Shown here piece after piece: positions 13,098 to 46,396 of a stretch of DNA of 46,396 nucleotides. Origin of the DNA: Planctomycetota bacterium (GTDB lineage Bacteria; Planctomycetota; UBA8742; UBA2392); assembly GCA_020847415.1 (NCBI GenBank), contig JADLBZ010000200.1, forward strand, positions 1-46,396. The letters run 5' to 3'. Position numbers and translations under genes: made by a program. Below the pieces are notes generated by a model. It made no database searches. It worked only from the letters and a program-made list of their open reading frames with translations, and was not told the DNA's origin. Numbering within the stretch: the stretch's first letter is position 1; every line of letters starts with the position of its first letter.

Positions 13098-13195
13098 GGG
13101 CGCATTGCAGCAACAACAGTTAAAGATGGCGTAAACGCGGCCTGTTGCTGGGCAGCCGGGCCGGCAAGCGGCTATACTGTGCGCCGGGGCGACCG

Positions 13196-28395: not shown

Positions 28396-28434
28396 GGCTT
28401 CGTCCTGCGCGGCTTTCTTGGCGGCCTCGTCCGT

Positions 28435-28617: not shown

Positions 28618-28668
28618 GCGACCTCCAGGGGTGGCTGTACCACCTTGATGCTGCCGCGGGCAGCCACT

Positions 28669-28683
28669 TTGCACAATATGCAA
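28669..28683. promoter_or_regulatory. Palindrome TTGCA-N5-TGCAA upstream of the TlpA-like gene
   Basis: TTGCACAATATGCAA lies in the 86-nt gap between 28704 and 28617. Confidence 0.2.
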
Positions 28684-28703
28684 CGGTTTGAGCCGGCTGC
28701 TGC

Positions 28704-29063: not shown

Positions 29064-29088
29064 GCGACCCCCAACCCCAGGCCCCGTG

Positions 29089-30897: not shown

Positions 30898-31028
30898 GGG
30901 GTTGGTCCTGTGCAGGTGCAGTTTACCCCCGCGGCGCCGCAACATACGCCGCGGGGGTAGAACTGCGTTCCAGAAGCGGAAGGCCGGGTCCGTTCCCGGT
31001 CAGATCCGGCCTGCCGCCATGGAGTTCC

Positions 31029-33821
31029 CTACTTGGCCGATTCGCGCTCTTTCAGCGCCTTCAGGGCGTCTTCAGAAACGCCGGCCGTCTTCAGGCCTTC
31101 GTCGGTAGCCTCGCCGTTCACTTTCGGGTTGCTGAGTTCCAGCGTCACCTTCACCTCCGCGCTCGTACCGGCAAACGAGATGCTCAGGGTCGCCTGCAGT
31201 TTGCTGACCAGGCTGAAGCCCTGGTGGCTGGTGCGGCCCAGTACGGAGACGGGCGTTTCGGCGAGGTCGCGGCGGGTCTGGACCGCCTGCCCGGGCACGG
31301 AGATGGTGGTCGTGACCTCGCGGCCCAGCGTCACCTCTTCCAGCTCGAGGCCGACCGGGTCGCCTTCGTGCTCAAGAAAACAGGGCCGGTTGATCCGGTA
31401 GGCATCCTCGCCGGCCTGGCCGACCCGGAACTCCGTGAGCTCGCGGCTGTCGCCCGACACGCGGTAGTACTCGGGCACAGAGTCCGTGCCGCGCAGGACC
31501 TTCACGTCCCAGGCCTCGGTTCTGGAGCCGGTGTCCACGGGGGTGAAGCTGAAGGTCGCTCCCGCGAAGCGCGACTCGAACGACGCCATCCCGGGCAACC
31601 AGGGCAGAAGCTCGGCTGCCCGCTGCGTCAGGGCGGCCTGAAGCCCCCGAAGCGACTTGCCTTGGGCATCCTCGGCACTCCGGAACGAGGTCTGACCGCC
31701 GCTGTACCAGACCAGCGAGCCTTCCACGGGCTGCACCGCCAAGGGGAGTTGCCCGGCTTCCACCGTCAGCTTGGCGTCCGCCAGCAGGCGGGTCAGGCCG
31801 TTTGACTCGGCTGAGTACAGCCTGGCCCACGCGGACTGGAGCAACTCGCGGGCCTGCGCCGCGTTCTTCTCGGCCTCAGCCTGTTTGGCATCGGCCTTGG
31901 GGGCCTCGGCCTCCTGTGCGTCAATGGCCGCAGTTGCGGGAAGCACACACAGGCAGGCGGCTGCAAGAACTGCCTTGCGCCGGCGCAGCAGCAGAAGTGC
32001 TGCGAGCAGGGCCAGTGCCGCCAGGGCAGAGCCGCCGCTGCCGGTGCTGCACCCGCCGCCGCCGCCCGAGCCGCCGCCCCCGAACTGGCCGGGGGCCGCC
32101 TGCTCGGCCAGGCGGAACACGAAGGTCGCCTGGCCGCCGTTGCCGTCCTGGGCCACCAGCGTCACGGTGTGCGTGGTCAGCGGGGCATTGAACAGACCGC
32201 TGGTGGGCTGCAGCACATACGGCACCGCGGCCGAGCCGCTGCTGAATTCGCCATTGTCGAGGCCCGTGGTGCCCACATTGGTGATGGTCGCGGCCACCGA
32301 GCAGGCGTCGCCGTCGGGGTCATCCACGGTGATGGCCAGCGCCAGTGCCGCCAGCGTCGAGCCCGGCGCCACGGCAATCTCGCTGCCGTTCACCACGTTG
32401 CTGCCGCCCGCGGTCAGGGCCAGCGTGGGCGAGTTGTTGGTGGGCGCCAGCCCCACCACAATGCTGAAGCCGAACGTGGTCACGCCGCCGCGGTAGTCGT
32501 CCGCCGTCAGCGTTACCTGGTGGGTGGTGCCGCCCTGGTTGAACGTGCCGCTGGCCGGGAAGAGGCTGTAGGGCGTGGCCCCGTGGCTGTGGGAGAATTC
32601 GGCCGTGGCCAGCCCCTGGGTCGTGACGTTGCTGATGGCGGCGGAAAGCTCCACGGAATCCGTGTCCGCGTCGCTGATGTCCAGCCGCAGGTTCAGGGCA
32701 GCCAGCGTGCTGCCGAAGGCGACGTTCAGGGTGCCGCCGTCAGTGACGGCGCCGCCGGCCGCCTGCACCTGTACTTCGGGGGCGTTGTTGCCCTGTGCCG
32801 GCAGCACAGTCAGGTAGAAGGCGAACTGCGCGGTGCCGCCTTTGCCGTCGTTGGCCTGGAACTGGAAGGTGTGCGTAACTCCGGCGCGGTTGAACTGCCC
32901 GCTGGTGGGTTGCAGCACATAGGGCGTGGCGGCGCTGGCGCTGGAGAACTCGCTGTTCAGGATGCCCTGGGTGGTTACGTTGCTGACGTTGCCGACCAGG
33001 CTGCACGGGTCGCCGTCGGCGTCGGCCACCGTGATGCGCGGGTAGAAGGCGGTCATCAGGCCGCCGTAGCTGCAGTTGATCTGCTGGCCGTTGCTGATGG
33101 GCATGTACAGGGTCAGCACCGTGACCGCGATGGTGGGCGCGTTGTTGGCGGTGGTCACCGGCGTGAAGCGCACGAAGCGCAGCCACGGCCACTGCGAGAC
33201 TGAGCCGTCGGGCTTGATGGAGCCGGGGTCCGCGCCGGGAAACACGGTCTGGCCGCCGCCGGTACCGGTGGGGCCCGAGATGGCGCAGGTGTTGGCGGCC
33301 GGCGAGTTGGGGCCCGCCGTGGCGGTGCCCGGCGCCGAGTACTGGAACTCGATGGCGCCGGTAGCGGTGTCCAGCAGGGCCGTCATGGTGAGCCGGGGCG
33401 GATTGACCGAGCCCGAGCCGGGGCTCAGCACGGTGATGTCGTCCCACTCCACAGCCAGCACGGGCGCCGTGTACTTCCAGCGGATGGCACCGCCCAGGTT
33501 CGGCTTCAGGTCTGCCCAGAAGGGGGCAACCACCAGGCCGGGTGCGGTGCTGTGCGCGGGCGTGCTGGAGGTAGTGGTGCCCTGCGTGCCCAGCACCAGG
33601 TAGCCGTTGGAGCCCACCTTGAATCCGGTGTAGGCCGTGCCGAAGTACGCAAACGAGAACCCGGGCGGGCTCTGGACTGCCGACAGTTCGTTGTCGCCCA
33701 GGGCCAGGGTGGTGGCGCCGGTCAGGGCCGTGTAGTTGGAAAGCGAGCCGCTGCTGACGGAGTATGTCTGCGCCGCCAGCGCGCCCGAGCCAAGCAGAAT
33801 CAACAGGCAAAGCCGAATCAT
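31029..33821 (-). CDS. Giant surface protein: signal peptide, NIDO-like domain, three cadherin-like (NNAP...DxDGD) repeats, internal Gly-Cys/TM/RRRK tag, 315-aa C-terminal domain
   Basis: The ATG at 33821 follows GGAGGAG. NIDO-like FSFAYFG...SNGYLVLG...VVAPFWADL. Repeats of about 115 aa begin NNAPTIAV, NNAPEVQV and NNSPTLAL. The tag is GGGGGCSTGSGGSALAALALLAALLLLRRRK. Confidence 0.85.
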   Translation of the reverse strand: MIRLCLLILLGSGALAAQTYSVSSGSLSNYTALTGATTLALGDNELSAVQSPPGFSFAYFGTAYTGFKVGSNGYLVLGTQGTTTSSTPAHSTAPGLVVAPFWADLKPNLGGAIRWKYTAPVLAVEWDDITVLSPGSGSVNPPRLTMTALLDTATGAIEFQYSAPGTATAGPNSPAANTCAISGPTGTGGGQTVFPGADPGSIKPDGSVSQWPWLRFVRFTPVTTANNAPTIAVTVLTLYMPISNGQQINCSYGGLMTAFYPRITVADADGDPCSLVGNVSNVTTQGILNSEFSSASAATPYVLQPTSGQFNRAGVTHTFQFQANDGKGGTAQFAFYLTVLPAQGNNAPEVQVQAAGGAVTDGGTLNVAFGSTLAALNLRLDISDADTDSVELSAAISNVTTQGLATAEFSHSHGATPYSLFPASGTFNQGGTTHQVTLTADDYRGGVTTFGFSIVVGLAPTNNSPTLALTAGGSNVVNGSEIAVAPGSTLAALALAITVDDPDGDACSVAATITNVGTTGLDNGEFSSGSAAVPYVLQPTSGLFNAPLTTHTVTLVAQDGNGGQATFVFRLAEQAAPGQFGGGGSGGGGGCSTGSGGSALAALALLAALLLLRRRKAVLAAACLCVLPATAAIDAQEAEAPKADAKQAEAEKNAAQARELLQSAWARLYSAESNGLTRLLADAKLTVEAGQLPLAVQPVEGSLVWYSGGQTSFRSAEDAQGKSLRGLQAALTQRAAELLPWLPGMASFESRFAGATFSFTPVDTGSRTEAWDVKVLRGTDSVPEYYRVSGDSRELTEFRVGQAGEDAYRINRPCFLEHEGDPVGLELEEVTLGREVTTTISVPGQAVQTRRDLAETPVSVLGRTSHQGFSLVSKLQATLSISFAGTSAEVKVTLELSNPKVNGEATDEGLKTAGVSEDALKALKERESAK

Positions 33822-33888
33822 GGTTTCTCCTCCGGTTCGTATGTTCAAACCGGCCCCCAAGCCGTGTCCGCGCAGTCACACTAACGTA

Positions 33889-33933
33889 AATGGAATGCCT
33901 AGGGTCGAATCGGCTGCTAGGATCTATTCCATT
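33889..33933. promoter_or_regulatory. Nested inverted repeat in the divergent promoter region (operator candidate)
   Basis: AATGGAAT (33889-33896) pairs with ATTCCATT (33926-33933). These enclose CCTAG (33898-33902) and CTAGG (33917-21). The patch is AT-rich relative to its surroundings. Confidence 0.4.
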
Positions 33934-33954
33934 CCCGGAACCGGAGGTCCTGCC

Positions 33955-35442
33955 ATGCCGGAAACGAATAGCACAGGCACGTTGCGCGAGCGCCTGCGCA
34001 CCCTGGCGGCCGCCCACTCGCAGGCCGAGCTTGCCCGCCGCACGGGCTTTCCCCCCGCCAACGTCCACCGCTTCCTGCGCGGCGGCAAGGTGCCCGCCGA
34101 GTTCTGCGAGTCGCTGGTGCGCGAGATGGGCGTGAACCCGGCCTGGCTGCTGGCCGGCGAGGGCACGGCGTACCTGGCCGACGTCACGGCAGAGACCGCC
34201 CGCATGGGCTCCAACCTGCTGGAGCTGGTCGAGGCCATGAGTGCCGTCTCGCGCATGCGCCTGGGATCGTTGACCGGCAAGCACCACCTGCGGGTGCTGC
34301 GCGAGCTCAGTGACGCCGTGTCGGAGCACGAGCGCCTGCGCCAGAAGTTGAACACCCAGAGCCTGCCCGTCTTTGCCAAGCTGCTGGAGGACCTGGAAGC
34401 CGCCCTGGACCGCATGAACCTGGAGCGCGCCGAGGACCTGCTGAAGGCCACCGAGCAGGTGGCGCGGCTGTGTGACGACGACGCCCTGGCTTTGCGGCTG
34501 GACGCCGCCCGCGCCCAGTACGCCTTCCTCACCGGCGACTCAGAGCACAGCGCAACCTGGCGGCGCAAGGTGTTTGTGCGCCAGATGGCAGGCGGCCTCG
34601 AGTTCAATGAGACGCGCCTTTTGCACGCCCAGTATCTGGTCATGGCGGTGCTGGCCACGGGCCGCATCGCCGAGGCCCTGCGCATCTGCCTGGCTGCGCT
34701 GGACCTCAGCGAGGGCAGGCGCACTCGCGCCTGGTGCGTGCTGCAGGCCACCGCGGGCGGCCTGGAAATGGACCTGGGTGACATGGCGGGCGGCATGGCT
34801 CGCATCCACCGCGCCCTTCCCGAGGCGCTGCCAGTGCTGCAGCAGCCTTACTCCAGCTACCAGGCCAAGTTCCTGCTCTTTGGCGGCCTTGGCGACATCG
34901 CCGCCTGCCTGGCCCTGAAGCCGTCCTCGATGCACCGCAGCACCGTGATCCTGCGTTTCGCCGCCTGGCTCGAAGATGCCGACGCCCTGCGCGTTGCAGC
35001 CAGGCAGTGCATCAGCCCCGACCATGCCGCGCGCCAGACGCACCTGCTGCCGGACAGCCCACCGGCGCTGCACGCCGCGGCCCTTTTGGACGTGCTGGCG
35101 GACAAGTCCCACCTGAAGCAGGCCGAGAAGCGCCTGGAAGCCGTGCAGGTGCGCGACGGGCGCCAGCGCTTCTTCAAGGCCGCTGTGCGCACCCAGTTGC
35201 GCCGGCTGGCAGGCGGGCGCAGCGCGCTGGAGGCCCTGAAGGAAGCCGATGCCGAGCTGCTGGCCCTGCCGCCGGGGGTAACGGTGTTGCCCGACTTCGC
35301 GGCTGTTCACTACCGCAACCTGCGAGAGCTGGGCGAGCGTGACCCATTGCTGCAGCCGCGCCTTGCGGCGGCCCGGGAGTTCTTCCGCAGCCACTACGCG
35401 CGCGGCTTTGCCTGCTTCAAGAGCTGGGCAGAAAAGGCGTAA
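33955..35442 (+). CDS. XRE/Cro-type HTH regulator with a large helical C-terminal domain (495 aa), paralog of 42263..43750
   Basis: The ATG at 33955 lies 8 nt after GGAGG. HTH QAELARRTGFPPANVHRFLRGGKVPAEFCESLVREMGVNPAWLLAGEG. Confidence 0.8.
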   Translation: MPETNSTGTLRERLRTLAAAHSQAELARRTGFPPANVHRFLRGGKVPAEFCESLVREMGVNPAWLLAGEGTAYLADVTAETARMGSNLLELVEAMSAVSRMRLGSLTGKHHLRVLRELSDAVSEHERLRQKLNTQSLPVFAKLLEDLEAALDRMNLERAEDLLKATEQVARLCDDDALALRLDAARAQYAFLTGDSEHSATWRRKVFVRQMAGGLEFNETRLLHAQYLVMAVLATGRIAEALRICLAALDLSEGRRTRAWCVLQATAGGLEMDLGDMAGGMARIHRALPEALPVLQQPYSSYQAKFLLFGGLGDIAACLALKPSSMHRSTVILRFAAWLEDADALRVAARQCISPDHAARQTHLLPDSPPALHAAALLDVLADKSHLKQAEKRLEAVQVRDGRQRFFKAAVRTQLRRLAGGRSALEALKEADAELLALPPGVTVLPDFAAVHYRNLRELGERDPLLQPRLAAAREFFRSHYARGFACFKSWAEKA

Positions 35443-37358
35443 CCCAGCAGCAGCAGGGCCAGGATCCCCGCCCCGGTCCCGCCTGCGTTGCAGCCGCTGC
35501 CTCCACCGCCGCCTGCCGCGGCAGGGGTGCCGCCTGTCCCCGGGGGAACCGGCCCGCCGCCACCCCCACCGCCGCCGCCGGAGCCCGCGCCGGCAGGGCC
35601 ATAGGCCGGCTGGCTGCTGCCGCGCTCGCAGGCGCCCAGGTCCGGTGCGGCACCCGCGAAGCCATCGGTGATATTGGGCAGGGCCACGCCGGCGTCCACC
35701 GCGCTGTTGGTGCCTGCAGCCAGCGCGAGATTGGCGGAACCCACCCCATAGGCCGGGCCGAAGCCCGTGGCGAACGGGTACGACGTGCCGCTGCGGGTGG
35801 GCACCGGTGCGTTCACGAACACGCCGTGGGTCACCAGCAGGCCGTGGGTCTCCTGGCCGGTGGCGGTGCGGAAGGCCGCCAGGGTGGCGTAGGTGGTGCT
35901 GCCGATGCGCCCGAAGTTGGCCGCAGCAGGCGACTGATACCAGCCGTTGTAGTCCCAGTCGTAGCGGGCGGCGATGGTGTCAAAGGCGATGGCGCCGGCG
36001 TCGTTGCTGCCCACGAAGAGGTTGTTGCGAAACAACCCGTGGCGCCAATCGCCGCCGCCAAAGCCGCGTTCATCTGCGCCCACAAACGTGTTGTTGAACA
36101 CCTGCAGCCCCGTGGGCGTGTTCTTGGGCGTGGTGCCCAGGGGGTGAAACTTGAGCGGCTTGAGCTGGCAGTTGTAGACCACGTTGCGGGCGATGATGGC
36201 GGGGCCCGCCAGCAACGGCTGCGCCGAGATGCCGCAGAGCACGTTGGTGAAGCGGTTTGCCAGCACGCGCAGGTTGCAGCGCGAGCTGTCCAGCTCGATG
36301 CCGTCGTCGGTGATCTCGTGGCACTCGTTGCCGATGAAGTCGCAGCCGCTGGTGTCCACGGTGTTGTCGTTGCCGCCGAAGCCCGCGCTGTCCCACCAGT
36401 CGTAGAACTCGTTGAAGCGCACGACGTGGCCGCGACCCACCAGGGTGCAGGCGTAGGAGTCCTGGCCGCGGCCGCTGCTCCAGTCGGCGTTGCCCTGCAG
36501 GGTGTTCTCGCTGATGAAGGCGCTCTCATGGCCCGCCCCCTGCAGCAGGATTCCCCCGGCCTCTGAGGTGGGCGAGACCGCCGAGCAGTCAATGCGGCAA
36601 CGCCGCACCACCAGGCCGCGCGTGGCTGTGCCCGAGATGGCGGTGCGCAGCGGCTTGCGCACGGTCAGGTTCTCCAGGTGCACGTACTGCGTGCCGGGAA
36701 AGGCCAGCAACGGCTGCGCGGTGCCGGCGCCGTCCACAACAACGGTGGCAGCATCCACCCCGCGCCAGACGATGGGGTTGCTGCTGGTGCCGCTGACCGA
36801 GAACGAGAAGGTGCTTGCGTGGGTGTAGGTGCCCGCCGCCAGCAGGAACACATCGCCCGGTGCCGCCGCCGCCTGGGCAGCAGCGAGGCCCTTGAAGGGG
36901 TCGGCCTGGCTGCCCGTGCCTCCGCCGGAGCCGGGCATCACGTAGCGCGTGCGGGGCGCGGCAGGATCAGCCGGGACGGCGCGCGTGCGCAGGCTGCGCG
37001 TCTGGACGCTGCTGCCGCCGTCGGCGTCGGCAAGGCTCAGGCGGACCTCGTACTCGGTGTCGGGCGACAAGCCGATCACGCTTCCCGCCAGCAGGTTGCC
37101 GGGGTCAAAGTCGTTGCCGCTGGTGGCGGCGGGCTCGACCCGCAGCAACGGCAGGGCCGCCAGCCAGGTCGCGGAGCCGGCGACGCGGTACTCGACGCCG
37201 ACGGAGCAATCAAGGTCGGCATCGCCGGTGATGGCCCAGCGAAAGCCGAGGCAGTTGCAGGTGGGGATCTCGTCGGTGATGGCGCCCGGCGTGGTCGCGT
37301 TCTGGGCGCACAGCGGCAGGGCCAGGCTCACGGACAGCAGGAGCAGCAACAGGCGCAT
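35394..37358 (-). CDS. Exported Fn3 + right-handed beta-helix protein with Gly-rich linker and C-terminal Gly-Cys/TM sorting tag
   Basis: The ATG at 37358 follows AGGAGG. Signal peptide MRLLLLLLSVSLALPLCAQ. Fn3-like VEYRVAGS...TEYEVRLSL. Beta-helix-like ITDDGIELDSSRCNLRVLANRF. Tail GGGGGSGCNAGGTGAGILALLLLGY. Confidence 0.85.
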   Translation of the reverse strand: MRLLLLLLSVSLALPLCAQNATTPGAITDEIPTCNCLGFRWAITGDADLDCSVGVEYRVAGSATWLAALPLLRVEPAATSGNDFDPGNLLAGSVIGLSPDTEYEVRLSLADADGGSSVQTRSLRTRAVPADPAAPRTRYVMPGSGGGTGSQADPFKGLAAAQAAAAPGDVFLLAAGTYTHASTFSFSVSGTSSNPIVWRGVDAATVVVDGAGTAQPLLAFPGTQYVHLENLTVRKPLRTAISGTATRGLVVRRCRIDCSAVSPTSEAGGILLQGAGHESAFISENTLQGNADWSSGRGQDSYACTLVGRGHVVRFNEFYDWWDSAGFGGNDNTVDTSGCDFIGNECHEITDDGIELDSSRCNLRVLANRFTNVLCGISAQPLLAGPAIIARNVVYNCQLKPLKFHPLGTTPKNTPTGLQVFNNTFVGADERGFGGGDWRHGLFRNNLFVGSNDAGAIAFDTIAARYDWDYNGWYQSPAAANFGRIGSTTYATLAAFRTATGQETHGLLVTHGVFVNAPVPTRSGTSYPFATGFGPAYGVGSANLALAAGTNSAVDAGVALPNITDGFAGAAPDLGACERGSSQPAYGPAGAGSGGGGGGGGGPVPPGTGGTPAAAGGGGGSGCNAGGTGAGILALLLLGYAFSAQLLKQAKPRA

Positions 37359-37524
37359 GGTGATTCCTCCTGCCGCATTGAATGCCGGGCAGGAGTGCAG
37401 GGCAGCCTGTGCGCGACACCTTGGCAACCGGAAGCGAAAGCGGGCACTGCGCCCCGCCCGCTTCTGGAATGCGGCAGATGCTCGGCCAAAGCGCAGCCAT
37501 CCCGGAAACGGTGGCCGGCAGCAC

Positions 37525-37554
37525 CACAGGGCCCGGCGTTCGCCGGGCCCTGTG
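37525..37554 (-). terminator. GC hairpin after the ECF-fusion gene
   Basis: 14-nt arms CACAGGGCCCGGCG / CGCCGGGCCCTGTG. The T-tail is weak. Confidence 0.45.
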
Positions 37555-37575
37555 CTTGCATGGAGCCCACTTGGG

Positions 37576-40500
37576 CTAGCGAAGTTCCAGCTTCGCGCGT
37601 TCTCCCTCTTTCAGGGTAATCTCACCGCTGATTGGCTCGTGGCCCATCACGTCCACCACGATCCGCAACGTGCCCGCGGGCAGGGGACCGATCTCGCGGC
37701 CGTCCGGCGAGGGCTCGCCCTTACCCTCCAACAGTGCAGCCAGGCGGCCGTGCGGGCGGTACTCCACCCCATCCGCACCGAACACCCGCACGCTCGCGGA
37801 TTCCAGCTCGGCCCGGGGCAGGCCCTCCACCACCAGCACCGCGCGGGCCGCGGGAGTCACAGGCATTTCCAGCGACGCCTGGTTGCCCGAAACCTCTACC
37901 TCCGCGACCGTGGGTACCAGCAGCGGCCCGCCAACCTCCACGCGGTAGCGACCTGTCGAAAGGCCCTCAAACACGAGTTGCGCGTCCTTGCGCAGGAGCT
38001 GCGGCTGTGAGGCCAGGGCGATGTTGCTGCCCGCCGCGAACAAGCGAGCCATCATGACCAACTGCGGCTTGCGGGCTTCTGCATTCTCGAACATGGAGGC
38101 AGGCATGCCCTTCAAGGCCACCTTCAACGTGCTGCCGCCCGGCTCCAGGGCCAGTGTCACGGCCCGGTCCCGTGCCGTGTCCACGGTGATGCCGACTGTC
38201 GCACGGCCCGGTGCGGTAGCCACCAGGGCGTACTTGCCGCGCGGCATGCCCTTGAATACCTGGGTGCTGCCCTCGCCCTCAAGGCGCCGGGGCTCCATCA
38301 TGGGCTCCAATGGGTCCGGGCCGAAAGGATACTCCAGCACCGGCAGCACGTTCAGCCGCACGGTCTTCAGGTCCAGGCCCTCGCCCTTGATCGTGACCGC
38401 CAGCTCGTCGCACACCAGTGTGCGCTCCAGGACTTCGACGCCGTCCCAGCCGCTGAAGCGGACCTCGTGCCGGACCGCCCCGCTGCTGCCCCTGGGCATG
38501 ATCCACGCGTAGTAGTCGCCCGGCGCAATGCCGGAGATCTCGAAGCAGCCCTGTTCGTCCACGTTGCCGCGGTGCATCGCGTCCGAAGCGCCGGTACCCA
38601 TCAGGAACACGCCCTTGATTTTCAGGTCCGGGCAGGTGATGCAGCCCTTGAACACGTTGCCGGGAGCACGCTGCGAGTAGTCAATGTCCAGGGTTGCGGC
38701 CTGGCCCTCTGCCACTTCCACGCGGCGCTTTTCCTTCAGTGCGGGCGACGGCGTGTCGAGGTTCTTGATCAGCACCACATACGAGCCGGGCTCGATGCCT
38801 TCAAACAGATAGCGCCCTTCGGAGTCCGTCTTGCCGCTCTTCACGTGACGAAGTTCCGGGGTGCCGAGGAAGACCGACGCGTCGGCCATGGGCTTGCCGT
38901 CCGGCCCGGTTACGAGGCCGGAGATCGAGGTTCCGCCCAGGTTCAGGCGCACCACCAGGGGCTCATCGGCCACCAGCACAGAAACGCGCGCAGAGCCCTT
39001 TTCGTGGGAAGCGATCAACACGTAGCTGCCGGGGGCGACGCGCTCGAAGCGGATCTCGCCGGTCGCGGAAGGCTCCGGGCCGTAGCCGGCGTAGCGGGTC
39101 AGCTCGGGGTTCTCGGCATCGGCGGCGTAGAACAGCATGGCGCCCACTCCCTGCACCAGGGTCGCGCCGGAGCCGTCGTGCACCGTGCAAGTCACTGTGC
39201 TTCCCTTGTGCAGCACCAGCCGCAAGTCGGTCTGGTCGGCCGCAGCAGCCTCCACCTTCACCCGGCACTCGGCCAGGCCGGGAGCGCGGGCCACCAGGTC
39301 GGCAGGGTCGCCAGGGGCCACCGTGAACTCAAACCGGCCGAGTTCGTTGCATGCCAGGTACAGGCTGGTCTCGCTGGCACCCTTGTGATCGGGGGTCTCG
39401 CGCAGGCGCACCATGGCCCCCGCCAGAGGCTTGCCGCTCGCGTCCACCACCTGCCCGCCCACGCGGCGGCCGGCCGCCAGCTTGATGGTGCCGAGGTCCG
39501 TGCAGCCGTTGCCGGAAGGGACGGCAATCTCTACGGGCCGGAAGCGCGGGTGCCGCATGCGCAACTGGACCGGCGACTCCTCAGCCTTGTTCAGGTTCAC
39601 TGTGTGGCGGCCCTGCTCGTCCAGCTCGGTCGTCATGCCGCCACCCCAGCGGGTGTTGCCGGCGATGACGGTGATGTACCCGGGCAGTTCTTCCTGCAGG
39701 GGCGGGTCGGTGCTGAACACGACGTAACGGCCCAGCGACTCCATGACCAGCAGAGGCTTATGGCCGGCGCGAAGGGGCATCGCGGCGTCCTTGCCGCTGA
39801 CGTAGCCCGACTTGCTGGCCACCAGCGGAACCAGGCTGCCCGCGGCGTCCTTCTTCACGGCAGCGACCAGGACGAACTTGCCCGTAGCGTCGCTTACCGT
39901 GCTTTCCGGCGCGCGAGCCAACGGGATGCACTCCGCCGCGTCAATCGGCGGCGCATCTATGCCCGAGGCCGGCAGTGCAAACGGCCCAATGGCGCCCACT
40001 TCAGGAGTACCCACCCCAAACGACCCCAACATGCCGAATCGAAAACCGACGGGCTTCTCCGGCCCGACCTTGGCCACTACAACTCGGGCGCCCGCCACGG
40101 GCTTGCGGTCCTGGTCTACGACCGTCCCTTCAATGCGCAGTTCGCGCTCATCCGCGGCCGGCACAGAGCCGGCGCCGGCCGAGACTGAGTTGCCGTTGTT
40201 TCCGGCAGGGGTGCCCGCAGCCTGGTTGCCCTGGTTGGCGCGGTTCCCGGCCGCCTGCGTGTTCCCGGCAGCGCCGCTCTTGCGGCTGTTGGCCGGCTGG
40301 TTGTCCTGCGCGAGCGCAATCGGCCTTGTGTCACCGGCTGCCGGCGGTTCCAGCATCTTCCACGCCACCAGGCCGCCTCCTGCTACCAGGACCGCCAGCA
40401 ACGCCAGCATGAGCGCGATGTTGCCGCCTGTTTTGGTGCCAATACTTGCCATGATTGCTGCCTCCATTGTCCGTAACACGTTTTCCGGGACCTCCTGCCG

Positions 40501-41076
40501 GGCGGCGCCGGCCTGCAGGGCGGTCTCCAGGTCCACGGGGGCCGGCACCGTTGCCAGGCCGCCCGCCAGAAGCGTTTCTCTCAGTCGTTCCAGGGCCGTG
40601 CGCTGGCGCGTCTTGACCGTGCCTTCGGGTATGCCCAGCGCGTGTGCCGTTTCTGTGGCGGTAAAACCCTGGGCAAAGCGCAGCAGCACTACTTCGCGCA
40701 GGTCGTGCGGCAGCGCACTGGCGGCCTCAAAGGCCGCGGCAGCCAGTTCGTTGCTGGGGTTGGCCGTCATGGCGGACTCGGCGGCTTGGGCCTCGCGCTC
40801 GCGGCGGAGTTGCCGGTCGCGCTTCACATCGCGGGCCAGGTTGGTGAGCACGCGAAATGCCAGGGTGCGCAGCTCGCCCGCTTCGGCCAGCGACTTGCGC
40901 GACCGGTGCAGGCGAATGAACGCCTGCTGCACGGCATCCTGGGCATCGCCCGGGTCGCCCAGGAGACTGCGGGCATAGCGGTACATTCCGGGGCTCTCTT
41001 CTCGCACGAACCGGTGCCAGGCGTACTGGTCGCCGTTTCGAAGCCCCTCGCGCAATGGTGCGGTGCTGGTTGACAT
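37576..41076 (-). CDS. ECF sigma factor fused via one TM helix to about 900 aa of CarboxypepD_reg-like repeats
   Basis: The ATG at 41076 lies 6 nt after GGGAGG. Region 2 DAQDAVQQAFIRLHRS. Region 4 LREVVLLRFAQGFTATETAHALGIPEGTVKTRQRTALERLR. TM IALMLALLAVLVAGGGLVAW. N/Q/G-rich linker. Repeats such as IEGTVVDQDRKPVAGARVVV, VGGQVVDASGKPLAGAMVRL and ISGLVTGPDGKPMADASVFL. Confidence 0.85.
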   Translation of the reverse strand: MSTSTAPLREGLRNGDQYAWHRFVREESPGMYRYARSLLGDPGDAQDAVQQAFIRLHRSRKSLAEAGELRTLAFRVLTNLARDVKRDRQLRREREAQAAESAMTANPSNELAAAAFEAASALPHDLREVVLLRFAQGFTATETAHALGIPEGTVKTRQRTALERLRETLLAGGLATVPAPVDLETALQAGAARQEVPENVLRTMEAAIMASIGTKTGGNIALMLALLAVLVAGGGLVAWKMLEPPAAGDTRPIALAQDNQPANSRKSGAAGNTQAAGNRANQGNQAAGTPAGNNGNSVSAGAGSVPAADERELRIEGTVVDQDRKPVAGARVVVAKVGPEKPVGFRFGMLGSFGVGTPEVGAIGPFALPASGIDAPPIDAAECIPLARAPESTVSDATGKFVLVAAVKKDAAGSLVPLVASKSGYVSGKDAAMPLRAGHKPLLVMESLGRYVVFSTDPPLQEELPGYITVIAGNTRWGGGMTTELDEQGRHTVNLNKAEESPVQLRMRHPRFRPVEIAVPSGNGCTDLGTIKLAAGRRVGGQVVDASGKPLAGAMVRLRETPDHKGASETSLYLACNELGRFEFTVAPGDPADLVARAPGLAECRVKVEAAAADQTDLRLVLHKGSTVTCTVHDGSGATLVQGVGAMLFYAADAENPELTRYAGYGPEPSATGEIRFERVAPGSYVLIASHEKGSARVSVLVADEPLVVRLNLGGTSISGLVTGPDGKPMADASVFLGTPELRHVKSGKTDSEGRYLFEGIEPGSYVVLIKNLDTPSPALKEKRRVEVAEGQAATLDIDYSQRAPGNVFKGCITCPDLKIKGVFLMGTGASDAMHRGNVDEQGCFEISGIAPGDYYAWIMPRGSSGAVRHEVRFSGWDGVEVLERTLVCDELAVTIKGEGLDLKTVRLNVLPVLEYPFGPDPLEPMMEPRRLEGEGSTQVFKGMPRGKYALVATAPGRATVGITVDTARDRAVTLALEPGGSTLKVALKGMPASMFENAEARKPQLVMMARLFAAGSNIALASQPQLLRKDAQLVFEGLSTGRYRVEVGGPLLVPTVAEVEVSGNQASLEMPVTPAARAVLVVEGLPRAELESASVRVFGADGVEYRPHGRLAALLEGKGEPSPDGREIGPLPAGTLRIVVDVMGHEPISGEITLKEGERAKLELR

Positions 41077-41194
41077 GGTTGGCCTCCCGGGGCGCATTAT
41101 GCCCCGGACGCCAGCTACACGCGGCCCGCACTGGTTTCGATTTGGGAATCCGGACAAATCTTCGCGCCAGGTCCGGGGCCCGCAAACAACGCAA

Positions 41195-41218
41195 AGGGCC
41201 CGGCTTTCGCCGGGCCCT
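41195..41218 (-). terminator. Rho-independent terminator candidate after the coiled-coil gene
   Basis: The minus strand reads AGGGCCCGGC-GAAA-GCCGGGCCCT followed by TTGCGTTGTTTGCG. Confidence 0.6.
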
Positions 41219-41248
41219 GGTGCAGCGGGAGAGCTCGCTGCGGGGGGG

Positions 41249-42136
41249 TTACTTCACCGAGAAGGCGCCTTCCTTCTCGGCGGGTGCCGCGGCCGGGGCC
41301 TGGGCGGCCTCTCTGGCCTGCTGCTTGCGCTGCAGCTCCAGCAGCTTGGCGCGGGTTTCGTCGTCCAGGTCCTTGGGCGCCACACGCGAGGCCTTCAGGC
41401 GCTCTTCCTGCTCGATGCGGGCGCGCTCGACCGCACCCTTGACCTGCGTCAGCGTGTTCATGGCCTCGCCGTGCTCGCGGCTGGTGCAGCCGGCGCGGGT
41501 CTGGGCCAGCTCCAGCATTTCCTCGTTGCGCTTCAGGCGCTCGATTTCGCGCAGCAGGCTCTGGTACTCGGCTTCAAACTCGGCCTGCTCGGCCTCGATG
41601 GCGGCCAGTTCCACGCCGAGCTGCTCCTTCTCGGCGCCCAGCACGGCGCGCTCGGCCTCAATGTCCTGCAGGCGGGTGCTGTACAGCTCGCGGGTCTGGC
41701 CGATGCGGGCCACCAGCTTGTCGGCCTCGGCGGCTGAGTAGCGGCTGCCGCGGTGCTCAATCACGCGTTCCGTGCCGACGCCCGCGGCCACGGTGTCGCG
41801 CTGGTCCTCCAGGTAGCAGATGTCTTCTTCACACAGCCGCACGATGTCGGCGGCGCGGCCGGCTTCCGTGTCCAGGGTGGCAAGCTGGCGTTCCACCTCG
41901 CGGGCCTGGCTCTTCAGCACGGCAATCTGCTTGGGGTAGGTCTCGCGCAGCTTGGCGAGTTCCTCTTTCATGTCGTTCTGCTTGCGGATCAGCTCGTCAA
42001 CCTCGCCCTGGGCCATCTTCTGCAGGGCCTTGGCGGCGTCCTTGGTGCGCTGCTTGCCCAGCACGGCATGGGTCAGCGCGATCACGCCGACGCTGCACAG
42101 GCCGACGATCACGACAGTCTTGATGAAGCGTTTCAT
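41249..42136 (-). CDS. Membrane-anchored coiled-coil protein (295 aa)
   Basis: GGAGAG lies upstream of the ATG. N-terminal TM IKTVVIVGLCSVGVIAL. The remainder is long and heptad-like, rich in E/K/R/L/A. Confidence 0.75.
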   Translation of the reverse strand: MKRFIKTVVIVGLCSVGVIALTHAVLGKQRTKDAAKALQKMAQGEVDELIRKQNDMKEELAKLRETYPKQIAVLKSQAREVERQLATLDTEAGRAADIVRLCEEDICYLEDQRDTVAAGVGTERVIEHRGSRYSAAEADKLVARIGQTRELYSTRLQDIEAERAVLGAEKEQLGVELAAIEAEQAEFEAEYQSLLREIERLKRNEEMLELAQTRAGCTSREHGEAMNTLTQVKGAVERARIEQEERLKASRVAPKDLDDETRAKLLELQRKQQAREAAQAPAAAPAEKEGAFSVK

Positions 42137-42191
42137 GGGTTCTCTCCGGGTATGCGCGATGGTTGTCCTGCCATGGTTAGGGGTGCTTTGC

Positions 42192-42221
42192 CGGAAATTT
42201 CAGACTGGGCACGAAATTCCG
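42192..42221. promoter_or_regulatory. Inverted repeat in the divergent promoter region (operator candidate)
   Basis: CGGAAATTTC (42192-42201) and GAAATTCCG (42213-42221) are separated by 11 nt. They share the GGAAT/ATTCC core with 33889-33933. Confidence 0.4.
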
Positions 42222-42262
42222 CCGCTCTGGCCTCGCGGCTGCACTGCGGCATACTGGGAGCC

Positions 42263-43750
42263 ATGGCCAAAGAACCACCCGAAGCCGCGTTGCGCCAACG
42301 GCTGGCGTTTCTTGCTGACCGCTTCGGCCAGGCTGCTATCGCGCGCAAGACGGGCACCACCCGCAGCAACGTGCATCGTTACCTGCGCGGCACACAGGTT
42401 CCTGCCTGGTTTTGCACGGCCCTGTGCGATGCGTTTGCCGTCTCTCCCGCCTGGCTGCTGCAAGGCACGGGCAACCCATTGCGCACCGCCCTGCAACCCG
42501 GCACCGCGGACGCGGCCGACACGCTGCTGGAGCTGAACCAGGCCATGGATGCCGTGGCGCGGCTGCAACTGGGGGCGTTGGGCGGCGACCTGGACGCCCG
42601 CCGTGTGCGCGAGTTGCAGGATGCCGCGGCAGCCTCCGGGCGCCTCCGCAAACGTGTGTCGGATGCCGCCGGGCGCGCCCTTTCCGGGCTGGCCGGCCAG
42701 GTGGCCGACGCCATTCGCTCGGGTGCCATCACGCGCGCGCGCGGCCTGGTCAAGACAGGCGAACTGGTGGCGACCCTGGCGCCGGATTCGGACGAGTACC
42801 TGGACTTCCGCTACCTGGCCGCCGCCGTGGAGAATCTCAGCGGCAACGCCGTGCGGGCCCGCAATGAGGTGCGCCGTGTGCTGGTAGCCCTGGTGGCGGC
42901 GGGCCGAAACATTGACCGCGCTGTGCTGGTGCGGGTCTCGGCGCTTGCCTCCACAGCCTACAACCTGGGAGACATGGCCACCGCCCGCACCATCGCCGTG
43001 CTGGTGGCCGACCTGTGCGGGGAGGACCCCCTGCAGTCGCCCTTTGCCGCGAAGATCCAGGTGCTGCTCTCGGACATTGACGCGACCGAGGGCCGTATGG
43101 CCCAGTCCATGCAGACGCTCTCGCGCTATTACCCCTGCGCGTCACGCGAGTTCGCCGAGCAATGCGGCGCCAGCATGGTGCTGAACAGCTACTTCTGCGG
43201 CATTGCGGACTTCGACGGCGTGAGCCGGATAGCGGAAATGGGCGCGGGCAAGGCCTCTGCACTGATGCGCATAGCCGTGTGGGAGGAAGAGCCGGCCCAT
43301 CTCGCCGCCGTGCTGGAGGGCCCGCGGCGTTTTGAGGGCTGGCCCGAGCAAGGCGCGCACCGAACCCTGCAGCGCATGCAGGCGGCGGCTTCGGCTCTGC
43401 AGGCCGCGCTGGCGGGCAAGTACCGCGCGGCGGCGCTGCGTCGCGTGCTTGGCGAGTTACCCGGCAGCCCGCTGCAAAGCCTGCGCGACGACATCCTGTG
43501 CCTGCAGGTGGAACAGCGCGCGGGAGCTGCCGTGGCCGCCAGGCGCGTGGGCGGCCTGTGGGAACAGGTTGCAGCCTTGAAGCCGCTGGTCCTGGGGCAC
43601 CTGTGGGAGGCCACGCTGCATCGCGTGGCCCTGCGAGCCCCCCGGCAGAAGGCCTGGAATGCCCTGCGCGCGAGAGCGCTGGAGTTCTTTGCCCGCGCCG
43701 TAAGCAACGGTTCCGCGCGCTTTGCCGCCCTCGCTGCCGGGCAGCCCTAG
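42263..43750 (+). CDS. XRE/Cro-type HTH regulator (495 aa), paralog of 33955..35442
   Basis: Internal ATG at 42263 of track ORF 41753..43750. HTH QAAIARKTGTTRSNVHRYLRGTQVPAWFCTALCDAFAVSPAWLLQGTG aligns position for position with the paralog. Both proteins are the same length. Confidence 0.8.
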   Translation: MAKEPPEAALRQRLAFLADRFGQAAIARKTGTTRSNVHRYLRGTQVPAWFCTALCDAFAVSPAWLLQGTGNPLRTALQPGTADAADTLLELNQAMDAVARLQLGALGGDLDARRVRELQDAAAASGRLRKRVSDAAGRALSGLAGQVADAIRSGAITRARGLVKTGELVATLAPDSDEYLDFRYLAAAVENLSGNAVRARNEVRRVLVALVAAGRNIDRAVLVRVSALASTAYNLGDMATARTIAVLVADLCGEDPLQSPFAAKIQVLLSDIDATEGRMAQSMQTLSRYYPCASREFAEQCGASMVLNSYFCGIADFDGVSRIAEMGAGKASALMRIAVWEEEPAHLAAVLEGPRRFEGWPEQGAHRTLQRMQAAASALQAALAGKYRAAALRRVLGELPGSPLQSLRDDILCLQVEQRAGAAVAARRVGGLWEQVAALKPLVLGHLWEATLHRVALRAPRQKAWNALRARALEFFARAVSNGSARFAALAAGQP

Positions 43751-44085
43751 CCGGCCTGGTTCATCTCTGATCCGTCATCTCCGGCTCGCCTCGTTGCAAA
43801 TCCGTGACGCCCGGCGGGTTGTCTCCCAGCCGTAACACACGGCGGCTTGTGCATTTCTCCCGCGTGCTGCCGGAGTGCTATCACCGCCCTTGGTCGAGGT
43901 GTCCTCCGGTGGGTTGAGGTGCTCTTGCGGCTGCCGGTCCAGGGCAGGCGCAGCAGCGCAGGCTGCAACCGGGATGGCGGGTGAATGCCGACGGGTGTCG
44001 TGCTCATCGCGGAACTCTTTCAGGCGCCCTGCGGGCGGCTGAAGTTTTGTCCTCGACGGTGACTGGTCGTAAGAAGGAGTACACC

Positions 44086-46396
44086 GTGCGAGTTCTTTTG
44101 TGTTTGATCGGCCTGCTTGCGCTTGGCCTTGGCCTGCCGGCCCTGTGCGGCCAGACCTACACCGCCTCCAGCATTGCCAACGCGTACTCAACCTACGATG
44201 TGAGCGCGACGGGCACGAACATAACGGGAAGCTGGTCGAGCAGGGACGATGGCAACCAGTCCGTGACCATGCCATTTGCCTTCACGTTCTTTGGCCAGAC
44301 TCCGTTCATCACGCCCTATACGCTGCGTATCTGCACGAACGGCTGGGTCTCGCAGACTGCGACTACTGCCGACCGCGCCACCCCTGCGACGCTTCCGTCC
44401 ACGGCTGCCCCGAACGGCTTCATCGCGGCGTTCTTCCGTGATCTCAGCTTCGGCACCACAGCGGCTCCGCTGGGGAACGCGTACACGCACACCATCGGGG
44501 CAGCCCCCAATCGTGCCTTCGTGGTCCAGTTTGCTGACACGCGCGTTTTTGGCGCTACAGCCACTACCTCTGTCTCGTTCTCCATTGTGCTGTTCGAGAC
44601 GACCAACGTTGTCGAGATCCACTACGGCACGATGACCACCCTCACCTACACCGGAGGGGTTGGCCTGGAGAACTCAACGGGCACTCATGGCATTGCCTCG
44701 CCGGCGGGCTTCAACATTGCGCCCGTAACCTCGGCGGCCTACCGCTGGACCCCTGCTGATGCCGCGGTCCTAACCGTCACCAACAACATGGGTACATCAA
44801 CGGGGCAGGGTATCTATGCCGGCGACGCGGGCGCCGGTGGCAACGGCACCAAAGGCGCCGGCCATGTGGTGGTCGCCAACACATCGTCCACTCTCGCCGG
44901 AAGCCTGATTTCGTTGACTTTCACGGCCAACGGGACCGGAAATGACGCCGCGGCCTACAGTGAGCTGGCCTTGTACCGCGACGCCAACGGAAACACGACC
45001 TACGAAAGCGGTACCGACGTGCTGGTCCAGTCCACGACAGCTTTCGGCGCGGACAACGGCACCGCGACATTTGCCATGAGCAGCGGGCTTTTGATTCCCG
45101 CAAGCAGTAACGCTACGTTCTTCGTCGTCGCCAAGTTCGCGGGTACTTCGCCGAACTGGCCGAACAGCGGCACTACGTTTCTCTACCGGTGTTCCAGCAT
45201 TGCCGTGGCCAGCAGCACGGTGGTCGGGCTGGTCAATGCCACGAACTGCTCCGGGTTCGTCATTACCTCGCCCCACGCGACACTGGCCGACACCAGCCCG
45301 GCGGCACAGGTCGGCTGCCAGACCGGCGCCACCAACCAGGTGGCTGGCTCGTTCAGTGTCGCCTACCCGAACGGCCCCACCGTCAACCTGGCCACGGTCA
45401 CCATCGGCCTGACTTTCGGCGCCGGCGGTGCCACGACCCATGTAACGCGCCTGGACATCTTCACCGACAGCAACGGCAACAACCAGATTGACGGCACCGA
45501 CGCCTCGGTGGGCAACACCACCACCATCGCAGCCAGCAACGCGGTGACCATCAACCAGTCCCTGGCGGCCGGCAGCACCACCCGCTTCCTCATCGTGCTC
45601 AGCTTCAACGCCACGGCGCCCACCAACGCCACGTACCAAGGCCAGGTCACGGCTGCCACCTGGAACTACACCACGGTGACCAACGCGGGCCTGCCCACCA
45701 CGCTCAGCGCGGGGCTGATCATCCAGGTCAACAACGACCTCAACGTCACGCGCAACGGGCCGGGCACATCCACCGCGGTGGACAACGACGCGCAGGGCAC
45801 GGGCAACGCGGGGCTGGTGATCCTGGACTTCTCGCTCAAGACCAACCAGGCTGCCTGGACGGTTACGGACATCACCTTTACCGAGAGCGGCACCGCCGAC
45901 GGCAGCACGGACATCAACTTCCTGGCCCTCTACGAGGACAGCACCACGGGCGGCACCGCGGGCAGCTTTGACGCCGCCGACGCCCTGGCGACCGCCGCGG
46001 CAGGCACGGCCTTCAGCGCCGCCAACGGCACCTATGCCGCCACGCTCTCCACCAGCGCCTGGGCGGTCAGCACCACCCGCCGCTTCTTCCTGGTCTGCAA
46101 GCTCAGCGGCCAGGCAACGGCGGGCGAGACCATCCAGGCCGAAGTCACAGCCCTGACCGCAACCACGGCGGCGACTCCGGCAGCAACGACCGGCGTGCCC
46201 ACCACGGCGGCCAACACAGCCCTGACCATTGACGTTCCCAAGCTGACGGTTGCCCTGGCCGGCCCCGGAGCCTACACGGCGGTCAACAACGACGCCCAGG
46301 GCCCCAACAACGACGGCCTGGTGCTGGCGGAAGTCACCCTCACCACCAAGAACGACCAGTTCAACTTCACCAGCCTCACCTTCACGGCCAGCGGCA
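44086..46396 (+). CDS. Giant surface protein (partial, at least 770 aa; runs off the window): signal peptide, NIDO-like domain, at least four repeats of about 165 aa
   Basis: Absent from the ORF track. GTG at 44086 lies 6 nt after AAGGAG (44074-44079). I translated the whole frame by hand and found no stop. N-terminus VRVLLCLIGLLALGLGLPALCGQTY...MPFAFTFFG...CTNGWV...FIAAFFRDL. The VNNDAQG motif recurs at about 45780 and 46285. Confidence 0.85.
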   Translation, partial: MRVLLCLIGLLALGLGLPALCGQTYTASSIANAYSTYDVSATGTNITGSWSSRDDGNQSVTMPFAFTFFGQTPFITPYTLRICTNGWVSQTATTADRATPATLPSTAAPNGFIAAFFRDLSFGTTAAPLGNAYTHTIGAAPNRAFVVQFADTRVFGATATTSVSFSIVLFETTNVVEIHYGTMTTLTYTGGVGLENSTGTHGIASPAGFNIAPVTSAAYRWTPADAAVLTVTNNMGTSTGQGIYAGDAGAGGNGTKGAGHVVVANTSSTLAGSLISLTFTANGTGNDAAAYSELALYRDANGNTTYESGTDVLVQSTTAFGADNGTATFAMSSGLLIPASSNATFFVVAKFAGTSPNWPNSGTTFLYRCSSIAVASSTVVGLVNATNCSGFVITSPHATLADTSPAAQVGCQTGATNQVAGSFSVAYPNGPTVNLATVTIGLTFGAGGATTHVTRLDIFTDSNGNNQIDGTDASVGNTTTIAASNAVTINQSLAAGSTTRFLIVLSFNATAPTNATYQGQVTAATWNYTTVTNAGLPTTLSAGLIIQVNNDLNVTRNGPGTSTAVDNDAQGTGNAGLVILDFSLKTNQAAWTVTDITFTESGTADGSTDINFLALYEDSTTGGTAGSFDAADALATAAAGTAFSAANGTYAATLSTSAWAVSTTRRFFLVCKLSGQATAGETIQAEVTALTATTAATPAATTGVPTTAANTALTIDVPKLTVALAGPGAYTAVNNDAQGPNNDGLVLAEVTLTTKNDQFNFTSLTFTASG

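Follow-up and report, generated by a model that had tools for sequence, protein, structure and literature searches.

Two adjacent members of a multi-copy regulator/surface-protein cassette in an uncultured Planctomycetota genome

Background

The stretch of 46,396 nt analysed here (hereafter the window; contig JADLBZ010000200.1, positions 1 to 46,396, of the Planctomycetota assembly GCA_020847415.1) contains, in its last 15 kb, two regulator genes of identical length, R1 and R2, each located next to a gene for a large exported protein, A1 and A2 respectively. The question raised by this arrangement is whether it corresponds to a regulator-adhesin module duplicated on the spot within a self-contained regulon, as proposed in an earlier note on this DNA, or to members of a more widely distributed family. 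Comparison with other genomes indicates that the window holds two adjacent members of a multi-copy regulator/surface-protein cassette. The features concerned are as follows, GC3 being the G+C content at third codon positions.

31029..33821, minus strand: A1, exported protein of 930 aa (translation; GC3 0.89)
31977..32063, minus strand: sorting-type tail of A1, aa 587-615, Gly-Cys / transmembrane (TM) segment / RRRK, GGGGCSTGSGGSALAALALLAALLLLRRRK (TIGR03382, TIGR03901)
33138..33770, minus strand: NIDO-like N-domain of A1, aa 18-228 (profile match to A2; relatives with PF06119)
33955..35442, plus strand: R1, regulator of 495 aa (translation; GC3 0.89; Pfam helix-turn-helix, HTH; AlphaFold2 model; Foldseek)
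42263..43750, plus strand: R2, regulator of 495 aa (translation; GC3 0.83)
44086..>46396, plus strand: A2, exported protein of at least 770 aa, cut by the end of the window (translation)
44152..44781, plus strand: NIDO-like N-domain of A2, aa 23-232, followed by repeats of no known family (profile search, hhalign)

The layout is as first described: A1 and R1 are divergent and separated by 133 bp (33822..33954), R2 and A2 are co-directional with a gap of 335 bp, and genes for a beta-helix protein, a sigma factor fusion and a TM coiled-coil protein lie in between. With 930 aa and at least 770 aa, A1 and A2 do not deserve the word giant that had been applied to them. The window has a G+C content of 68%, and the excess of third-position G+C that marks true coding frames was found in every gene considered here.

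The two regulators

Translation confirmed that R1 and R2 are both exactly 495 aa long. In BLASTP comparison they are 29% identical along 343 aa, with only one gap of 2 residues (E-value 2e-36), identity amounting to 49% in the HTH, 40% in the linker block LLEL..AM.AV..LG.L and ca. 20% in the remainder. Since homology includes both the block, already pointed out in the earlier note, and the remainder, the likeness goes well beyond that of a generic HTH; R2 also retains the motifs NVHR.LRG, VPA.FC and PAWLL.G.G of R1. On these alignments R1 and R2 are true paralogues, but old ones: R2 is the deepest branch in a neighbour-joining tree of what is a large family, which together with the 29% identity does not agree with a local duplication. 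Their equal length is a coincidence, full-length family members (at least 90% query coverage) spanning 472-527 aa.

A search with R1 in the protein collection identified 125 relatives; all named ones derive from metagenome-assembled genomes (MAGs) of uncultured Planctomycetes, in which they are titled XRE HTH or tetratricopeptide repeat (TPR) protein. A scan using one genome per species confirmed 148 loci, 80 of which, from 22 Planctomycetota MAGs, were kept; up to 7 of these come from one assembly, so that single genomes carry at least 7 copies. The regulator family thus has a lineage-specific distribution, having been seen so far only in uncultured Planctomycetota MAGs. Its neighbourhood was analysed in 82 fetched loci (L001, L002, etc.) together with the window, that is in 83 distinct sequences containing 87 regulators, with genes predicted by a GC3-based caller which is crude, above all for starts and short genes. 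A literature search retrieved no paper on the regulator family, on its pairing with surface proteins or on RRNPP regulators (see below) in Planctomycetes, and both the family and the pairing are apparently undescribed.

Three regions can be distinguished in R1: an XRE-type HTH (aa 6-72), a conserved linker with a long helix (aa 76-135) and a TPR-like superhelix (aa 136-495). Along the family, mean pairwise identity is 55% in the HTH, 62% in the linker and 33% and 25% in the two portions of the TPR part. Conservation of the HTH is strong and includes invariant residues in its recognition helix, while the best-conserved stretch of the protein is the linker, to which no role is assigned. In Pfam searches both regulators matched a borderline XRE/Cro-type HTH at aa 10-65 alone, the other 420 residues being without a match; HTH_31 scored 26.0 bits for R2 and 21.3 bits for R1, both borderline with respect to the cut-off of 27. 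The precomputed domains of the protein collection list PF13560 for R2 and PF01381 or PF13560 for many family members, and the N-terminal five-helix domain recognised by the HTH_3/HTH_31 models, which defines the XRE (Cro/C1) class, is found in R1 and R2. Neither regulator matched any NCBIfam family or any of the PADLOC models of anti-phage defence.

The AlphaFold2 model of R1, computed from an alignment of 33 family sequences, is all-alpha with a pLDDT of 89.7 and comprises a five-helix HTH (aa 6-67, pLDDT ca. 90), a poorly ordered hinge, one long helix and ca. 16 helices arranged as a TPR-like superhelix. When compared to the PDB with Foldseek, this model retrieved TPR/SUPR proteins alone, at modest E-values. 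The top match is domain III of MalT (1hz4; E-value 1.6e-4, TM-score on target 0.62) and further matches include LGN, subunits of the APC, the anti-sigma factor DdvA, NprR and Rap. The predicted fold and these matches indicate that R1 has the architecture of a one-component HTH plus TPR regulator that falls into no specific family.

MalT domain III (SUPR) and the STAND regulators thus provide the best structural match to the R1 sensor domain, but no Pfam NTPase/STAND domain occurs in R1 or R2, and the model consists of HTH, linker and TPR only. The HTH of MalT is C-terminal and of the LuxR type, whereas that of R1 and R2 is N-terminal and of the XRE type.

A closer formal resemblance is with the RRNPP regulators of Firmicutes (PlcR, NprR, Rgg, PrgX, AimR), one-component proteins in which an N-terminal XRE HTH is followed by a C-terminal TPR superhelix sensor in the same polypeptide, an order also found in R1, and whose genes usually lie beside a target or signal gene. 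As quorum-sensing receptors of this type, R1 and R2 would bind through their TPR domain a small secreted peptide encoded nearby, and the surface proteins would follow cell density. NprR and Rap structures are among the Foldseek matches of R1, at ranks 17, 35, 37 and 50, with TM-scores on target of 0.4-0.5 (NprR ca. 0.5) that are no better than those of unrelated TPR proteins; MalT domain III, LGN and the APC subunits score equally well or better. No propeptide gene adjoins the regulators, and no conserved small ORF with a signal peptide was found among the downstream neighbours of the regulators, as far as the gene caller, which is crude for short genes, can reveal them. The sole recurrent small neighbour encodes a cytoplasmic-looking protein of 62-74 aa ending in DNTIPLFDGDF. 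The RRNPP receptors PlcR, Rgg, PrgX, NprR and AimR are roughly 285-425 aa long and thus shorter than the 495 aa observed here, and the conserved 60-aa linker is not known from RRNPP proteins. The family is restricted to Planctomycetota and has no sequence-level family match in Pfam or NCBIfam. An RRNPP-type role appears very unlikely.

Genes for small proteins ending in ...DNTIPLFDGDF (62-90 aa) are convergent to the regulators of one clade (L036, L050, L063, L066, L070 and L072). A protein of this type is also encoded in the window at 13145..13417 (plus strand); the L036 copy, which was tested, has no Pfam match.

The exported proteins

A1 is composed of a signal peptide, the NIDO-like N-domain, three Ig-like Big_9 repeats detected by Pfam, a MYXO-CTERM-like tail in internal position and a 315-aa extension of no known family. 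The tail scores above the cut-off of both models that describe such signals, with 21.5 bits for TIGR03382 (GC_trans_RRR, cut-off 15.85) and 20.3 bits for TIGR03901 (MYXO-CTERM, cut-off 20). In most relatives from other loci the tail is at the extreme C-terminus, the protein ending within a few residues of it; in A1 it is followed, right after RRRK, by a second hydrophobic stretch and then by ca. 300 residues of no known family. The whole extension (ca. 315 residues) is in the same frame and has a coding-type composition (GC3 0.84). The closest A1 orthologue, in L002, is without the Gly-Cys motif and continues for ca. 28 residues beyond its RRK cluster through a second hydrophobic stretch. By analogy with MXAN_5598, a Myxococcus protein with an internal MYXO-CTERM for which a gene fusion has been suggested (PMC11980579), the internal tail of A1 fits a gene fusion as well. 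A2 probably also ends in a Gly-Cys tail, judging from its relatives in L014 (665 aa) and L030 (369 aa), which end with Gly-Cys, TM segment and RRR.

These tails have the same tripartite organisation as the MYXO-CTERM signals of Myxococcota, i.e. a Gly-rich run containing a single Cys, followed by a TM helix and a cluster of Arg, and likewise terminate varied passengers. Their hosts are Planctomycetota, whereas the tag has been described as specific to myxobacteria (PMC11980579). A preprint by Haft on Cys-containing sorting signals makes no mention of Planctomycetes and contains no regulator terms; no dedicated regulator beside each MYXO-CTERM client gene was found reported there for myxobacteria.

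The earlier note considered the N-termini of A1 and A2 as paralogous and nidogen-like. BLASTP detected nothing significant between the two proteins and did not bear out the first point, which did hold at the profile level: a profile of 10 A1-type N-domains from which A2 was excluded matched the A2 N-terminus (E-value 1.4e-5), and hhalign of small A1-type and A2-type alignments gave a probability of 97.5% (E-value 6e-12, 161 columns). The two N-domains are ca. 24-30% identical and have in common the pattern FxFxFFG...NG...APFWxDL, which resembles that of the NIDO domain (PF06119). As to the second point, A1 and A2 remain below direct Pfam detection: PF06119 was matched neither by the whole proteins at E<=0.1 nor by eight isolated N-domains at E<=10. 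The A1 N-domain has relatives in 2368 cluster representatives at E<=1e-3, often in 3-12 copies within proteins of 1-4.6 thousand residues, and the seven relatives scanned all match PF06119 above its cut-off (46-104 bits; phmmer E-values from the A1 N-domain of 1e-17 to 1e-51). The NIDO stretch overlaps the A1-matched stretch in both cases checked (P0129 and P0228). Since relatives carry PF06119 over overlapping stretches, the label NIDO-like is supported via these intermediates. A search of the PDB sequences with the N-domain returned nothing usable, a homologue search of the protein collection with the A1 N-domain returned a single fragment, and the AlphaFold2 model of the N-domain, based on 3 sequences, had a pLDDT of 41, too low for fold comparison.

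Linkage of the regulators to divergent genes

For 77 of the 87 regulators, the upstream neighbour is on the opposite strand, and a single-linkage BLAST cluster which includes A1 takes in 53 of the 87 upstream neighbours. Members of this cluster carry a variety of passenger domains (FG-GAP/Big_5, Calx-beta, TIG, choice-of-anchor D, GEVED, He_PIG, ASH-type Ig and NIDO-like), their common denominator being a C-terminus with a Gly run containing a single Cys, 15-18 hydrophobic residues and then RRRR. Such a tail was found in 40 of the 77 divergent neighbours, whereas among the 1168 other proteins encoded within +/-10 kb 23 had one (odds ratio 54, p 1e-37). Gene predictions supplied by the database itself agree in placing a large exported protein divergently in L002 (647 aa) and in L083 and L084 (1130-1146 aa, GEVED/He_PIG); in L001, they give a 61-aa thioredoxin-like fragment instead. 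The linkage between regulators and surface proteins that the earlier note proposed to test for is thus strong in other genomes, in the form of a divergent position, although the conserved feature is the Gly-Cys/TM/Arg tail and not the NIDO-like domain.

Visual comparison of the regulator tree with the neighbours further showed that regulator clades match the partner classes FG-GAP, GEVED, TIG and NIDO-like. Because clades track partner classes in this way, regulator/partner pairs appear to have been inherited and diversified together. Cassettes were found in tandem in L059 and L062 and illustrate how new copies arise. Two regulators occur within 10 kb of each other in 7 of the 83 distinct sequences, so that the arrangement of the window is a recurrent minority pattern rather than a unique one.

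The NIDO-like N-domain itself occurs in only 12 of 1348 locus proteins and, outside the window, 9 of 11 are divergent partners of one regulator clade, that of R1. With the domain being so rare and mostly found in partners of this clade, pure chance is an unlikely explanation for the location of A2 beside R2; yet R2 lies outside the R1 clade and its orientation relative to A2 differs.

Other genes recur beside the regulators. In L011 (11464..12573), L012 (11464..12486) and L033 (11464..12654), all on the minus strand, a homologue of Lgt (PF01790) is convergent with the regulator; the Pfam match was obtained for L011, those of L012 and L033 being its homologues in the same position. This location is of note because an Lgt-like enzyme is the proposed agent of Cys lipidation in MYXO-CTERM tails (PMC11980579). 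One FG-GAP clade (L015, 11148..12281; L042, L043 and L049) has a conserved third gene downstream, on the regulator's strand, whose product is a response-regulator receiver domain fused to a PP2C/SpoIIE phosphatase and may point to phospho-signalling as an input. This third position is occupied, in the GEVED clade, by a gene for a conserved 307-aa protein without known family.

An NnrS + DUF1858 + ScdA_N fusion is encoded in the window at 21222..23360 (minus strand), ca. 10 kb from R1, and the same fusion is present in L083 (15034..17034) and L084 (10720..12720), where it adjoins, along with hemerythrin and FmdE-like genes, the regulators most closely related to R2 (P0123 and P0124). Its presence near both suggests remnants of shared synteny.

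Candidate operators

Inverted repeats were found upstream of both regulators of the window:

33889..33933, no strand: candidate operator in the A1/R1 spacer, perfect inverted repeat AATGGAAT-N29-ATTCCATT (repeat search)
42193..42220, no strand: weak candidate operator upstream of R2, imperfect inverted repeat GGAAATTTC-N11-GAAATTCC (read from the sequence)

The motif ATGGAAT occurs three times in the whole window, twice within the repeat of the A1/R1 spacer. The half-sites AATGGAAT and ATTCCATT are conserved in the orthologous loci L002-L006, even with a different divergent gene and a spacing of ca. 120 nt, the proximal one being located 20-28 nt before the start codon. In the family at large, after the regulator starts had been re-anchored with an HTH profile, an 18-bp palindrome TGTAyC-N6-GrTACA was detected 49-58 nt upstream of the start in 10 of the 87 regulators, versus 3 of 929 control upstream regions and 0.4 expected in shuffles, with near-matches in many more members of the FG-GAP and GEVED clades. 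In a pattern search, sites of the R2 type (GGAAATTTC/GAAATTCC) were intergenic only upstream of R2, but their count was not above chance. An enrichment of the k-mers CCGGAA and GGAAW was rejected, as a conserved Met-Pro-Glu coding start, ATGCCGGAA, sat inside the set taken as intergenic, and a scan for sigma-70 promoters and terminators was uninformative. The palindromes, as sequence patterns, are consistent with the binding of a dimer in the shared promoter region.

Proposed function of the cassette

The cassette is composed of two parts. The first is a one-component regulator in which an XRE-type HTH at the N-terminus is joined by a highly conserved linker to a variable TPR-like superhelix that would act as sensor. 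The second is a divergent gene or operon for a protein predicted to be exported by the Sec pathway, usually with a MYXO-CTERM-type tail that would mark it for the cell surface. The regulator, probably as a dimer, would bind a palindromic operator in the shared intergenic region and set the transcription of its partner and of itself according to the signal read by the TPR domain. The TPR part has diverged between paralogues and we therefore propose that each surface protein has its own input. Local control of the divergent partner genes by the regulators is, overall, the explanation that we regard as probable. R1 conforms to this scheme, its partner being A1 together with the genes that follow A1 in the same direction; R2, a deep outlier, has as divergent partner the run of genes for the TM coiled-coil protein, the sigma factor fusion and the beta-helix protein, with A2 downstream.

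Several observations weigh against this proposal. The loci are mutually related, so the linkage statistics overstate their independence, and for about one third of the regulators the neighbour is not a surface protein but, for instance, a methyltransferase or a thioredoxin-like protein. The strict 18-bp palindrome is limited to 10 of the 87 regulators, the general enrichment in inverted repeats is weak (10 observed versus 4.5 +/- 1.8), and the R1 half-sites, whose spacing varies among orthologues, may overlap mere promoter elements. As to R2, no close orthologue was found among 5.8 billion proteins, the nearest being 37% identical over 35% of the query; its divergent neighbour, the TM coiled-coil gene, encodes no tail, and the pattern search gave no R2-type site upstream of A2. 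MYXO-CTERM sorting goes with a cognate myxosortase (MrtX, of the CPBP family) and a type II secretion system encoded in the same genome; no match to the CPBP family was found among the window proteins scanned, no search having been aimed at a sorting enzyme.

Finally, the closest orthologues of R1, in L003-L006, are without A1, which in the R1 orthogroup is present in the window, L002 and L008. The divergent genes of L003-L006 are instead a thioredoxin-like gene with an in-frame stop (candidate selenoprotein) and a gene for a 602-aa orthologue of a 618-aa protein of the window. Orthologues of these two genes are divergent to the R1 orthologues in L001-L006, and in the window both follow A1 on its strand. 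The thioredoxin-like and 618-aa protein genes are thus the most stable neighbours of the R1 orthogroup, since they are kept where A1 is missing.

A different kind of role, post-translational, could be envisaged from the one trait common to otherwise unrelated partners, namely a TM segment with an Arg-rich tail facing the cytoplasm. TPR domains commonly bind short peptides, and that of the regulator would bind this tail in the partner precursor, or its cleaved remnant, and act as an export or sorting chaperone or checkpoint. That the most conserved part of the regulator is the linker of unassigned role would be in line with such a function. The strong conservation of the HTH with its invariant recognition-helix residues and the fixed upstream distance of the palindromes argue otherwise, as do the many regulators whose partners have no tail; moreover, the tails are too similar between paralogues to account for the divergence of the TPR part. 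Such a role is thus highly doubtful.

Transcriptional control of the partner and recognition of its tail could also be combined, each cassette then being a private feedback loop in which the TPR domain would read the fate of the partner via the Arg-rich cytoplasmic tail or the membrane remnant left after cleavage at Gly-Cys. This remnant would be the signalling peptide of an RRNPP-like switch, and the seven or more cassettes per genome would form an individually gated repertoire of surface proteins. This extension is speculative and very unlikely. If true, it would mean individually gated surface proteins in a phylum in which such a sorting tag has not been described.

Neighbouring genes

The remaining genes of the region are:

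27370..30945, minus strand: gene run behind A1 and co-directional with it (618-aa protein, 119-aa protein, thioredoxin-like candidate selenoprotein at 27370..28395 with in-frame TGA)
29089..30945, minus strand: 618-aa protein, family unknown, looks secreted (co-directional with A1)
35394..37427 (likely ATG start 37358), minus strand: beta-helix exported protein (Pfam Beta_helix)
37576..41157, minus strand: extracytoplasmic function (ECF) sigma factor fusion (Pfam; translation)
41249..42136, minus strand: 295-aa protein with an N-terminal TM anchor and a coiled coil (translation)

The right-handed beta-helix protein is convergent with R1, its gene overlapping the R1 3' end by 49 nt, and it ends in AGGGGGSGCNAGGTGAGILALLLLGYAFSAQLLKQAKPRA, a Gly-Cys and TM tail with a weak basic cluster. 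Orthologues occur in the same position, convergent to the regulator, in L003-L005 alone, which are among the closest orthologues of R1. The ECF fusion contains sigma-70 regions 2 and 4 (PF04542, 43.9 bits; PF04545, 42.7 bits; aa 51-194) without region 3, the combination that defines ECF sigma factors, followed by a TM helix at ca. aa 243-268, an Asn/Gly/Ala-rich linker and ca. 900 predicted periplasmic residues with several CarboxypepD_reg domains; from this domain order it is predicted to be a membrane-tethered sigma factor in one polypeptide. In L002, a stand-alone 168-aa ECF sigma factor and a 615-aa protein are encoded in the same minus-strand run. The gene for the 295-aa protein opens the minus-strand run ending with the beta-helix gene and lies divergently next to R2; its product belongs to no Pfam family, and no homologue of it was found among the 82 loci.

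These genes bear directly on the proposal that the whole 15-kb block from A1 to A2 is one self-contained surface-remodelling regulon, with a regulator-adhesin module duplicated around a sigma factor core. Within 15 kb there are indeed two regulators that are paralogues and two proteins whose N-domains are homologous, the beta-helix protein likewise carries a Gly-Cys/TM tail, and an ECF sigma gene is also found near the R1 orthologue of L002; paired regulators within 10 kb in 7 of the 83 sequences and the tandem cassettes of L059 and L062 also point in this direction. However, neither the sigma fusion nor the coiled-coil protein has a counterpart beside regulators in the 82 loci and the beta-helix gene is syntenic only beside the closest orthologues of R1, so the block cannot be considered self-contained. 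In addition, the R1 orthologues of L003-L006 have neither A1 nor R2 and A2, the identity of R1 to R2 and the deep branching of the latter argue against a recent duplication, and the N-domains of A1 and A2, weakly similar, belong to a widespread domain. A single regulon of this kind is therefore unlikely. Nor does it hold that no component can be assigned to a described system, since the XRE HTH, TPR, NIDO-like domain, MYXO-CTERM-like tail, ECF sigma factor and beta-helix all can.

The genes at 27370..30945 may belong to the same divergent transcription unit as A1. The last of them, a thioredoxin-fold gene (27370..28584, minus strand), reads ...VVLLDCWATW-TGA-GPC..., i.e. a CGPC-type site in which the codon of the first Cys is TGA, and its product is on this basis a candidate selenocysteine (UGPC) protein. 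An in-frame TAG at 28435..28437 separates a start that resembles a signal peptide from the remainder of the gene. The TGA is followed by a hairpin resembling a selenocysteine insertion sequence, the fold of which was not better than that of shuffles (z = -1.4). ORFs of 52-62 aa ending in ...VWATY or ...FTAEW, which are thioredoxin-fold N-termini halting where the redox-active Cys is expected, are located on the minus strand just upstream of the regulators in L002 (7611..7799), L003-L006 (ca. 9534..9760), L064, L070, L072 and L081. Since these short ORFs stop at the position of the active-site Cys, probable TGA read-through recurs beside regulators in several genomes. At the far end of the minus-strand run starting with A1, two adjacent genes (25450..26232 and 26263..26934, minus strand) encode weak paralogues of 260 and 223 aa (mutual E-value ca. 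1e-5) with no Pfam family.

Conclusions

Many large exported proteins to which no role is assigned are encoded by uncultured Planctomycetota of activated sludge and comparable habitats, and the present data suggest that a good part of these proteins belong to regulator-plus-client cassettes that have multiplied and diversified together. This offers a means of predicting which surface proteins are individually regulated, as well as a defined DNA-binding family with candidate operators. It also points to wide use, in another phylum, of a C-terminal sorting tag that contains Cys and is considered typical of myxobacteria. The elements, and the logic of a local one-component regulator beside its target, are ordinary; what is new is a lineage-restricted regulator family with a conserved partner class, made of familiar parts, which represents a useful new family rather than a new principle.

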